A stretch of 61,627 nucleotides of DNA, filler included, from Thermodesulfobacteriota bacterium (GTDB taxonomy: Bacteria; DASVDK01): assembly GCA_036381125.1 (NCBI GenBank). It is 5 parts of 5 records of this genome, joined end to end, with 100 filler letters (N's around TTAATTAATTAA, not from the genome) between each part and the next. Parts side by side here need not be neighbours in the genome. Positions count along the whole stretch, not along the records: positions 18,522 to 29,422 come from DASVDK010000366.1; 4 more parts are not named here. One strand, 5' to 3'. Shown here in pieces: positions 18,422 to 54,851 of the stretch (within the stretch, counting starts at the first letter, position 1; each line of letters opens with the position of its first letter). The position numbers and the translations under genes were made by a program. The notes under the pieces were generated by a model that searched no databases, had not been told where the DNA came from, and was given only the letters and a program-made list of their open reading frames with translations.

Positions 18422-18521
18422 NNNNNNNNNNNNNNNNNNNNNNNNNNNNNNNNNNNNNNNNNNNNTTAATTAATTAANNNNNNNNNNNNNNNNNNNNNNN
18501 NNNNNNNNNNNNNNNNNNNNN
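18422..18521. other. Artificial contig spacer
   Basis: N run with TTAATTAATTAA (stops in all six frames). Confidence 0.98.
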
Positions 18522-26317: not shown

Positions 26318-27727
26318 GTGGGGATCCGCCTCAGGCTGACGCTCTACTACACGACGCTGCTCGCCCTGCTCGTCGCCCTCGTGGGATGGGGGGTGCACGC
26401 GCTCGTGGCCCGCCTCCTCGCGCGCGACGTGGACCGGTCGCTCCAGCTCATCGCCCGGCAGGTCAACGAGGCGGCCGGCCGCGGCCTGCCCGATCCGAGC
26501 AGCCTCACGCTGATCCCGGACCCCGCCTCGGGCGCCGTCTTCCTCGGCGAGTTCGTGCAGATCTTCGACGTGCAGGGCAGCCCCCGCGGCGTGGCCGGCA
26601 AGCGGCCGCGGCTGCCGGTGCCGGCCGAGGCGCTCTCGCGGGCGCTTCGGGGCGTCGCCGACGTGCGCACCGTGGCGTCCGCCGACGGCCGCGAGCGGAT
26701 CCGCCTCCTCACGGCGCCGCTCGTCGACGGCCGGCGGGTCACCGGGGTCATGCAGATCGGCGTCTCGCTCGCGCCCGCGGAGGTGACCCTCGCGCGGCTC
26801 GCCACCGCGCTCGCGCTCGGCTGTGCGGCGGCCCTCGTCGTGGCCGCCGTCGGCGGCTACTGGCTCGCGGGCGTGGCGCTCCGGCCGATCGACGCGATGG
26901 TGAGCGCGGCGTCGAGCATCTCGCACACCGACCTCTCCCGGCGGCTACCCGAGCCGCCCTACCGCGACGAGCTGGCGCGCCTCGCGCAGACGTTCAACGC
27001 CATGATCGCCCGGCTCGAGGAGGCGTTCGCGCGCCTCGACCGCTTCGCCGCCGACGCGTCGCACGAGCTCAGGACGCCGCTCACCATCCTGCGCGGGGAG
27101 GTCGACCTGGCGCTCCGCCACCCGCGAACGCCCGAGGAGTACCGCGAGGTCCTCGCGAGCAACCGCGACGAGATCGACCGCATGGCGACCATCGTCGACC
27201 AGCTCCTGCTCCTCGCCAGAGCCGAGAAGGGCCAGCTCGTCCTGGCGCGCGAGCCGGTGCGGCTCGACCGCCTCGTCGAGGAGACGGTCCGCCAGTGGCG
27301 CGACCTCGCCGTCCAGTCCGGCCTGACGCTCGTCCTCGAGCCGCCGCCGCCGCTCGTGGTACTCGGCGACGAGCTGCGCCTCAGGGAGCTGCTCCTGAAC
27401 CTCCTCGAGAACGCCCGCAAGTACACGCCGGCCGGCGGCCGCATCACCGTGCGCCTGGCCGCCGACGAGGCGGCGCGGGTCGCGCGGATCAGCGTCGAGG
27501 ACACCGGCGTCGGCATCCCCGCCGACTCCGTCCCGCGCCTCTTCGACCCCTTCTTCCGCGCCGACGCCGCGCGGGCGCGCGACGCCGGCGGCAGCGGCCT
27601 CGGCCTCACGCTGGTCAAGCGGATCGCCGATCTGCACGGCGGGTCGGTGACGGTCGACAGCGAGGTGGGCAAGGGGACCCGCTTCACGGTCAGCCTCCCC
27701 CTGGCCGAGGCGCCGGCGCCGGTCTGA
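26318..27727 (+). CDS. HAMP-domain sensor histidine kinase (CusS/heavy-metal sensor-like)
   Basis: Two TMs, HAMP, FAADASHELRTPL H-box, NLLENARKY, DTGVGI and GGSGLGL. Confidence 0.95.
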   Translation: MGIRLRLTLYYTTLLALLVALVGWGVHALVARLLARDVDRSLQLIARQVNEAAGRGLPDPSSLTLIPDPASGAVFLGEFVQIFDVQGSPRGVAGKRPRLPVPAEALSRALRGVADVRTVASADGRERIRLLTAPLVDGRRVTGVMQIGVSLAPAEVTLARLATALALGCAAALVVAAVGGYWLAGVALRPIDAMVSAASSISHTDLSRRLPEPPYRDELARLAQTFNAMIARLEEAFARLDRFAADASHELRTPLTILRGEVDLALRHPRTPEEYREVLASNRDEIDRMATIVDQLLLLARAEKGQLVLAREPVRLDRLVEETVRQWRDLAVQSGLTLVLEPPPPLVVLGDELRLRELLLNLLENARKYTPAGGRITVRLAADEAARVARISVEDTGVGIPADSVPRLFDPFFRADAARARDAGGSGLGLTLVKRIADLHGGSVTVDSEVGKGTRFTVSLPLAEAPAPV

Positions 27728-27837
27728 CCACGGTGAGGCGCGTCCCGGTCGTCGACGGCGGCCGCGGCAGCCTTTCCTCGCCGTTGACACGCGACCTGCA
27801 GGGGCGGCCCGAGGTTCCCACCTCAGGAGGACCGACG

Positions 27838-28431
27838 ATGACCGCCGCACAGGGCGCCATCACCTGGCGCCACGACCTCGAGGGCGCACTCGGCGACGCA
27901 CGGGCCCAGGGCCGGCACGTGCTGCTCGACTTCTCCGCGGCGCCGATGTGAAGCGGCTGCGCTCGGCTGGATGCCGAGGTCTATCCCGATCCGCGCGTCG
28001 TGCGCCTCGTCGGGGAGGCGTTCGTCCCGGTGCGCGTGCACGTGAAGGAGCAGGCCGACGCGTACGCGCAGCTCTCGACACGCTACGGCGTGCAGTGGAC
28101 GCCGACGACGCTGGTGATCGATTCCCGCGGGGGGGAGCGGCACCGCATCGAGGGGTTCCTGCCCGCGGACGACTTCCTCGCGCAACTGGCGTTGGGCCTC
28201 GCCCACTCCGCGTTCGCGGCCGGCCGGTTCGCCGAGGCCGAGCGGCAGTTCCGTGAGGTGGTCGACCGCCACCCGGACTCGGACGCCGCGGCCGAAGCGC
28301 TCTACTGGGCGGGCGTCTCGCGGTACAAGGCCACGAACGACGCGGCCGCCCTCGCCGACACCGCGAGGGAGTTCACCACCCGCTACCGGGACACGAGCTG
28401 GGCGAAGAAGGCGTCCGTCTGGGCGGCGTAG
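27838..28431 (+). CDS. Probable selenoprotein: thioredoxin-like (U-S-G-C) plus TPR domain, 197 aa, with UGA at 27949 read as Sec
   Basis: AGGAGG SD and ATG 27838; LLDFSAAPM-TGA-SGCARLDAEVYPDP continues in frame into YGVQWTPT (cis-Pro loop) and a TPR-like AEALYWAG; hairpin just downstream of the UGA. Confidence 0.85.
27962..27978 (+). promoter_or_regulatory. Candidate bacterial SECIS hairpin
   Basis: CTCGGC-TGGAT-GCCGAG perfect 6-bp stem; loop begins 16 nt after the UGA with G at loop position 2. Confidence 0.65.
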
Positions 28432-28483
28432 CGCGCGAGGCCCTTGCAGAAGACGCGCCTGCCTGGTAGGGTGCTCGCGACTT

Positions 28484-28590
28484 CGTCACCGGGGAGTAGC
28501 CGCCCCCGCGACCGCGGGGGGCGCGCGTCAACACGCTTGGCCCCTGGGCCATGGCGCGCGCGACCGGAGGGTCTGGCGAGACCTGTGGCG
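28484..28590 (+). ncRNA. yybP-ykoY (Mn2+-sensing) riboswitch
   Basis: Conserved GGGGAGTAGC...CGTCAACA...GGCGAGACC segments with closing P1; TTGCAG-17-TAGGGT promoter upstream; precedes a GDT1-family gene. Confidence 0.85.
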
Positions 28591-28664: not shown

Positions 28665-29237
28665 ATGCAGGCGCTCCTCGCTTCGATCCTCGTCGTCGCC
28701 GTCGCGGAGATCGGCGACAAGACCCAGCTCCTCGCGCTGATCCTCGCCGCCCGCTTCCGCCAGCCCGTGGCGATCACCCTCGGCATCCTGGTCGCGACCC
28801 TGGCGAACCACGCCGCGGCCGGTGCCCTCGGTGCGTGGGTGGCGTCGGCGTTGTCCCCGACGACGCTGCGGTGGGGGCTCGGCCTCTCGTTTCTCGCCGT
28901 CGCGCTCTGGGCGCTGGTGCCGGACCGCCTGGACGAGACGAAGGCGGAGCCGGTCGGCCGGGACCGGGCCTTCGCGGCCACGCTGGTGAGCTTCTTCCTG
29001 GTGGAGATCGGGGACAAGACGCAGGTGGCGACGGCGATCCTGGCGGCGAGGTTCGACGCGCTGGCGTCCGTCGTGGCCGGCACGACGATCGGCATGCTGG
29101 TCGCCAACGTCCCCGTCGTCGTCCTCGGGGAGGCCGTCGCCCGCCGAGTGCCGCTTCGCCTCGTCCGCGTCGTCGCGGCCGTGGTGTTCGCGGCCCTCGG
29201 CGGGCTCGCGCTGGCCGGCGTCGGGGCCGGCCCGTAG
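28665..29237 (+). CDS. TMEM165/GDT1 (UPF0016) family Mn2+/Ca2+ exporter
   Basis: Two EIGDKTQ signature motifs. Confidence 0.92.
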   Translation: MQALLASILVVAVAEIGDKTQLLALILAARFRQPVAITLGILVATLANHAAAGALGAWVASALSPTTLRWGLGLSFLAVALWALVPDRLDETKAEPVGRDRAFAATLVSFFLVEIGDKTQVATAILAARFDALASVVAGTTIGMLVANVPVVVLGEAVARRVPLRLVRVVAAVVFAALGGLALAGVGAGP

Positions 29238-29422: not shown

Positions 29423-29522
29423 NNNNNNNNNNNNNNNNNNNNNNNNNNNNNNNNNNNNNNNNNNNNTTAATTAATTAANNNNNNNNNNNNNNNNNNNNNN
29501 NNNNNNNNNNNNNNNNNNNNNN
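29423..29522. other. Artificial contig spacer
   Basis: N run with TTAATTAATTAA. Confidence 0.98.
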
Positions 29523-36651: not shown

Positions 36652-36751
36652 NNNNNNNNNNNNNNNNNNNNNNNNNNNNNNNNNNNNNNNNNNNNTTAAT
36701 TAATTAANNNNNNNNNNNNNNNNNNNNNNNNNNNNNNNNNNNNNNNNNNNN
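36652..36751. other. Artificial contig spacer
   Basis: N run with TTAATTAATTAA. Confidence 0.98.
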
Positions 36752-54751: not shown

Positions 54752-54851
54752 NNNNNNNNNNNNNNNNNNNNNNNNNNNNNNNNNNNNNNNNNNNNTTAAT
54801 TAATTAANNNNNNNNNNNNNNNNNNNNNNNNNNNNNNNNNNNNNNNNNNNN
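54752..54851. other. Artificial contig spacer
   Basis: N run with TTAATTAATTAA. Confidence 0.98.

Follow-up and report, generated by a model that had tools for sequence, protein, structure and literature searches.

A single gene at positions 27838–28431 (+ strand) of the window, the whole 61,627-nt stretch of DNA that was analyzed, very probably encodes a cytoplasmic selenocysteine (Sec)-containing thiol-disulfide oxidoreductase of a catalogued family. Its sequence indicates that the gene belongs to the "Thiol:disulfide interchange protein" selenoprotein family. The family is already known, and the value of the gene lies mainly in the correction of a common annotation error; among the 120 top-scoring database matches, 113 are truncated products without the catalytic motif, under labels that include "TolA-binding protein" and "TPR repeat protein". 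New here are a cross-phylum soil subfamily with a near-invariant SECIS element, three paralogs with TGA, and a deletion in a sister genome. The gene also provides a clean example of a SECIS element that freezes six codons.

Architecture of the read-through protein

The window consists of five contigs joined by N spacers (18422–18521, 29423–29522, 36652–36751, and 54752–54851), so genes on opposite sides of a joint are not true neighbors. The gene lies on contig C366. A Shine-Dalgarno sequence, AGGAGG (27825–27830, + strand), read directly from the sequence, is located 7 nt upstream of the ATG at 27838. As stated in the initial annotation, these elements open a thioredoxin (Trx)-like N-terminus. 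Codon 38 is a TGA (27949–27951, + strand) that occupies the first position of the redox motif. When this codon is read as Sec, the motif becomes U38-S-G-C41 and the frame remains open, with no other stop, from codon 38 through W87-T-P-T90 to the TAG at 28429–28431, which yields the 197-amino acid protein anticipated by the initial annotation. Cys41 (27958–27960, + strand), the presumed resolving cysteine, is invariant in an alignment of 49 rows. W87, T88, and P89 of the WTPT motif (28096–28107, + strand), which we take to be the cis-proline loop of the Trx fold, are invariant in the same alignment. The 37 codons that precede the TGA have a GC3 of 0.92, which is coding-like.

The read-through protein matched PF13098 (Thioredoxin_2) in a Pfam search with 59.9 bits against a cut-off of 27, and PF13899 (Thioredoxin_7) with 39.3 bits, also above cut-off. 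Together with Foldseek, these matches delineate a Trx-like domain that resembles DsbD-gamma and DsbH and spans residues ~8–118 (27859–28191, + strand). TPR_6 scored 28.1 bits, just above its cut-off of 26.3, and TPR_16 fell under cut-off. The structure model, for which 49 sequences served as input, has a pLDDT of 96.1 and a pTM of 0.91. Sec38 opens the helix formed by residues 39–48. The C-terminal region (28165–28422, + strand), initially described as a pair of TPR-like helices, comprises five helices in the predicted model (residues 110–127, 131–144, 149–166, 170–182, and 187–195); Pfam and structure matches point to a TPR-like fold that resembles YbgF/CpoB. The protein is probably cytoplasmic, because it starts directly with the Trx fold, and no signal peptide is apparent by eye.

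A gene for a sensor histidine kinase (26318–27727, + strand; TIGR01386, just over cut-off) precedes the selenoprotein gene. Downstream, a yybP-ykoY manganese riboswitch (28479–28574, + strand) precedes a gene for a GDT1-family antiporter (28665–29237, + strand); this is an ordinary pairing that bears no relation to the selenoprotein. A scan for promoters and terminators around the gene found nothing, and the sequencing runs listed for the locus include no RNA dataset.

Conservation of the TGA codon, its hairpin, and the Sec machinery

Contigs of sequencing runs X2 and X3, which belong to a study other than that of the possible source run X1, span the TGA without any differing letter. Because of this agreement across studies, a misassembly that conceals TGC or TGG can be discounted. 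Conservation of the codon was examined in the best 80 of 123 related stretches found in a genome collection. These 80 loci (56–73% identity) derive mostly from MAGs of Acidobacteriota and Gemmatimonadota, with some from Myxococcota and other groups. The column contains TGA in 79 of the 80 loci and CGA in one, and neither TAA nor TAG occurs; in 79 of 80, no further stop interrupts the matched stretch. The CGA (Arg) codon is found in a Vicinamibacteria locus (L024:4112–4114, and P0005) in which the hairpin is intact and selA is present in the genome; Sec seems to have been lost there recently. A Verrucomicrobiia copy (L086:1290–1649) has a second stop near residue 120 and is possibly decaying or affected by an assembly error.

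The initial annotation asked whether homologs carry Cys or TGA at this column, and both are found. A protein database search gave 3925 matches at E ≤ 0.001. Of the 120 with the best scores, 7 span the Sec column and 113 start past it, at position 48 in 109 cases; most of the top matches are ~150 amino acids in length. The initial annotation expected two fragments; in this search, which covered proteins of 108–345 amino acids and hence none as short as a 37-amino acid N-terminal fragment, a single truncated product is seen. The 55 homologs of 175–270 amino acids have CxxC in 33 cases, WxxC in 5, SxxC in 5, and another residue or a gap in 12, although some of the database C letters at this column may stand for U. 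The W residues probably reflect gene calls made with a table in which TGA encodes Trp. Cys homologs with names include proteins of Geomonas and Geobacter. P0273 aligned to the window protein with 32% identity over 185 amino acids (E 5e-40) and P0152 with 39% over 186 amino acids.

The SECIS-type hairpin, CTCGGC-TGGAT-GCCGAG, occupies 27962–27978 (+ strand). Its 6-bp stem (27962–27967 paired with 27973–27978) closes a 5-nt loop, UGGAU (27968–27972), with G at loop position 2. The gap from the UGA to the loop is 16 nt, the folding energy is −10.0 kcal/mol, and the register is the same in 80 of 80 loci. In the bSECIS model given in PMC13188914, the loop has 3–9 nt, the stem has 4–16 bp, a G lies within the first two loop positions, the distance from the UGA is 16–37 nt, and the energy is at most −7.5 kcal/mol; the window hairpin falls within all of these bounds as they appear in that source. 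We rejected stability alone as evidence for a SECIS element. Folding z-scores of the hairpin range from −0.91 to +0.75, which is not beyond chance in a genome of 73% GC, and the same scan detected an equally stable hairpin at 431 of 5000 TGA triplets sampled at random from the genome. The case therefore rests on conservation, and the initial proposal of a bacterial SECIS element stands on geometry and conservation, whereas the hairpin taken alone is no better than chance.

Codon usage sets the hairpin apart (79 rows: the window and the 78 loci that have a start codon). Among rows with the consensus residue, the top codon accounts for a fraction of 0.92, 1.0, 1.0, 0.95, 0.99, and 1.0 at residues 42–47, respectively, compared with 0.33–0.77 in 35 conserved control columns of residues with four- or sixfold degeneracy. 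Values beside the hairpin are 0.57 for G40, 0.52 for C41, and 0.73 for V48. S33, which lies outside the hairpin, is also skewed (AGC in 0.94 of 65 rows); the two separate blocks of serine codons can explain this skew. Stem positions are paired in 99.3% of cells in the 67 distinct rows of the DNA alignment (the window and all but one of the 80 loci), a count that related sequences inflate. Three rows are unpaired at one position, and one locus (L045) has a double change from G-C to A-U, so that covariation amounts to one event in one sequence. A paralog on contig C149 preserves the hairpin register with a U-A pair changed to G-C on both sides. These observations indicate that the hairpin is under selection as a SECIS-type element. 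An overlapping reading frame was considered as the cause of the frozen codons and rejected: across the 80 loci, the stretch free of stops varies from 9 to 426 codons in the −1 frame, with no common length, and from 16 to 433 in the +1 frame.

A search for the Sec machinery, which the initial annotation had proposed, was borne out for selA, selB, and selD, all of which are above cut-off in this genome; selC was not found in the assembly. The selD gene (G000:C156:487-1425) has its own in-frame TGA and a hairpin at a spacing of 16–17 nt, and is thus itself a selenoprotein gene. Rfam, ARAGORN, and two pattern scans of the assembly failed to find tRNA-Sec; the best Rfam candidate, at 46.4 bits, is a tRNA-Ser, with 150 of 612 candidates scored. 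A genome of the same genus (G080) encodes tRNA-Sec with 71.7 bits and the anticodon TCA (L095:1148-1245), ~740 bp past DNA that matches the end of contig C236 of our genome (15785–15794) at 90%. Judged by this position, a gap in the 382-contig assembly beyond the end of C236 probably conceals selC. Among the 79 distinct host genomes of the 80 loci, 66 contain selA above cut-off (33/40 and 34/40, with one genome shared), a count drawn from genomes that are not independent. The other 13, several of which have partial matches, are all MAGs whose completeness is unstated. Removal of an unpublished genome (G037, locus L044) leaves TGA in 78 of 79 loci and selA in 65 of 78 genomes, and the conclusions are unchanged.

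Family membership and predicted function

The table of PMC13188914 describes the "Thiol:disulfide interchange protein" family by PF13098, a UxxC motif, and the representative WP_011366075.1, credits the family to Kryukov and Gladyshev (2004), and enters it as a prediction. A survey from 2006 names three members, in Geobacter metallireducens, G. uraniumreducens, and Syntrophus aciditrophicus (PMC1794560). The sequence of WP_011366075.1 is printed in supplement 3 of PMC12013277. Supplement 1 of that paper contains a second member from Syntrophotalea acetylenica, which has ~190 amino acids and is co-linear with the window protein, and another entry of the same family name that is a longer, different protein; the catalogue label is thus loose.

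The window protein contains PF13098 and one Sec in a UxxC motif, two features given for the family. It is identical to WP_011366075.1 at ~64 of 185 columns (~35%, with two short gaps) in an alignment made by hand. Both proteins fall in the ~190-amino acid class, have U at the same UxxC column and a helical C-terminal domain, and contain I-x-W, D-x-x-x-Y-P-D, WTPT, G-F-x-P, and E-A-x-Y-x-x-G-V-x-R-Y in the same order. Passages on the catalogued family do not describe the TPR-like domain, and a keyword search of three papers found neither TPR nor tetratricopeptide. Within the family, the window protein belongs to a subclade characterized by FSAAPM-U-x-G-C-A-R-L-D-A-E and composed of MAGs of Acidobacteriota, Gemmatimonadota, and Myxococcota, apart from a group that contains Geomonas. 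A family whose first three members came from Geobacter and Syntrophus thus extends to soil MAGs of these phyla, although the subclade may already be listed in BSepDB. Our literature searches found no experimental study of the "Thiol:disulfide interchange protein" family, and a search on bacterial thioredoxin-like tetratricopeptide selenoproteins with SECIS elements returned nothing relevant.

According to Foldseek, the nearest solved structures to the Trx part are DsbH and DsbD-gamma, and that nearest to the helical part is YbgF/CpoB. The protein differs from DsbD itself (PRK00293) in its score of 42.4 against 330 bits, and neither a membrane domain nor a signal peptide was seen. TsoB (NF045694), the VPGUxxT proteins (NF041382, NF041383), and the Trx7/PDZ protein (NF041199) resemble the window protein in having a Trx7-type domain and Sec in a redox motif, but these NCBIfam models of Trx-fold selenoproteins describe other architectures. 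Scores were 56.3 bits against a cut-off of 805, 23 against 350, 37.1 against 275, and 21.5 against 300, respectively, and none of the 10 matched NCBIfam models reaches its cut-off, which may be the reason that the gene is unannotated.

Because the TGA is conserved, the hairpin codons are frozen, CxxC homologs exist, and the Sec machinery is present, codon 38 is almost certainly read through as Sec, and the same evidence supports the Sec-dependent redox protein proposed in the initial annotation. Established Sec biochemistry suggests that SelB loaded with Sec-tRNA would bind the hairpin and direct Sec to codon 38. A function as a thiol-disulfide oxidoreductase is likely from established Trx biochemistry. 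In such a reaction, the selenolate of Sec38, at the start of helix 39–48, would attack a substrate disulfide or an oxidized thiol; Cys41 would then resolve the mixed bond, and a cellular reductant would restore the site. For the TPR-like domain, the most likely task is to bind a client or partner protein and thereby provide substrate selectivity, an adaptor role that we infer from the modeled domain. The protein seems to be a stand-alone accessory factor for redox repair, outside any fixed pathway, since its neighborhood is not conserved and the gene has been lost from the sister genome (see below).

Three other readings of the TGA were weighed against Sec insertion. The codon could be a true stop that separates a 37-amino acid peptide from a C-terminal protein with its own start, or could overlap a −1-frame ORF that starts at GTG and accounts for the frozen codons. 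Thousands of homologs are present in databases, most of the top ones ~150 amino acids in length and starting at position 48, and in 76 of 80 loci the TGA shares letters with a −1-frame GTG. Against this, the −1 frame has no common length across the loci and the open stretch of the +1 frame varies as widely, codon 48 reads GTC in the window and is no start codon in 22 of 80 loci, and a true stop would divide the Trx fold at the catalytic position. In addition, the stop codon at this column is never TAA or TAG, and full-length CxxC homologs exist, all of which makes termination highly improbable. Translation of the UGA as Trp or Cys, through an alternative code or suppression, is comparably remote. 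The five homologs with W at the column and the absence of selC from the searched assembly speak for it; however, TGA is the terminal stop of the same gene in many homologous loci, the W entries have the probable origin in gene calling described above, a tRNA-Sec with the anticodon TCA is encoded in the sister genome G080, and the hairpin is under selection. A pseudogene or assembly error is the least probable of all and can be dismissed for practical purposes. Loss of most of the gene from the sister genome does show that it is dispensable in that lineage, but the TGA is conserved across several phyla, contigs of another study contain the same letters, and the window copy is intact in comparison with the decayed remnant of the sister.

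With Sec at codon 38 as the preferred reading, a further alternative concerns what the protein does. The selenoprotein might act as a chaperedoxin similar to CnoX, in which unfolded proteins bind to the TPR-like domain and have their thiols guarded by Sec until hand-over to a foldase. In support of this reading, CnoX/YbbN and the window protein share the order of an N-terminal Trx domain followed by C-terminal TPRs (PMC8129009), and the YbbN structures 3qdn and 3qou appear at ranks 8 and 11 of the Foldseek search. However, CnoX/YbbN is described in that source as a protein of ~285 amino acids with two five-helix TPR subdomains and SxxC or CxxC without Sec, whereas the window protein has 197 amino acids and one five-helix unit. 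The whole-chain match to YbbN is poor (TM 0.42/0.30 for 3qou, rmsd ~12 Å, 12–16% identity), the Trx domain is nearer to DsbH and DsbD-gamma and the helical part to YbgF/CpoB, and no chaperonin is found among the recurring neighbors. Such a chaperedoxin is therefore unlikely, and a holdase activity of the CnoX type added to the oxidoreductase function seems doubtful as well. It is tempting to speculate, with similarly low expectation, that the FSAAPM-U-xGC subclade as a whole represents a selenium-dependent chaperedoxin or client-targeting reductase with a single TPR unit, common in soil Acidobacteriota and Gemmatimonadota and moving between phyla with its near-invariant 17-nt SECIS element. 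If true, it would be an abundant, unannotated soil selenoprotein and the first Sec-containing Trx-TPR protein of the chaperone type. The oxidoreductase reading that we favor involves no new recoding mechanism, and a long-standing question would come into play only if the TPR-like domain had a chaperone or targeting role.

Paralogs, sister genome, and gene neighborhood

The genome encodes two more paralogs with ~39–40% identity, and each has its TGA in the corresponding column together with a bSECIS-type hairpin. One is located on contig C237 (G000:C237:14263-14808, − strand) with a hairpin spacing of 23 nt, and the other on C149 (G000:C149:4965-5516, − strand) with a spacing of 16–17 nt. The sister genome G080 is syntenic with the window at 93% on both flanks (C230, L099), yet lacks ~600 bp that correspond to window positions ~27749–28345. 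The missing stretch takes in the ribosome-binding site, the TGA, and the Trx domain, and its junction falls at a short CGG overlap. G080 retains a decayed 3′ remnant of the gene together with an intact orthologue of the C237 paralog. The remnant implies that the common ancestor already had this copy, which then disappeared from G080 but is still intact in the present genome.

In a quick tree of 67 rows, evaluated by SH-aLRT only, with no bootstrap, and computed without the sister-genome row or the published representative, the window protein falls in a group of 22 rows from Acidobacteriota, Gemmatimonadota, and Myxococcota with a support of 97. The two paralogs and a 13-row group that includes the Geomonas protein lie outside this group. 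Horizontal acquisition by the host is plausible; its phylum is represented by 2 genomes in the collection. One Gemmatimonadota MAG (G026) contains two gene copies of the subclade (L033 and L082). A locus titled Bifidobacteriaceae (L021), from a 4.7-Mb genome, has a gene near the Vicinamibacterales copy L076, and its taxon label may be wrong.

No conserved operon was found among 83 stretches. The largest neighbor clusters, which comprise 8 and 7 of them, look like synteny among close kin. The manganese riboswitch, the GDT1 gene, and the sensor kinase are not recurring partners, the kinase cluster being present in 5 of the 83 stretches. A DinB/Pol IV-like gene, recognized by eye, lies downstream of the gene in seven Gemmatimonadales loci (L049, L060, L064, L067, L075, L080, and L084), an arrangement that probably also reflects synteny among kin.
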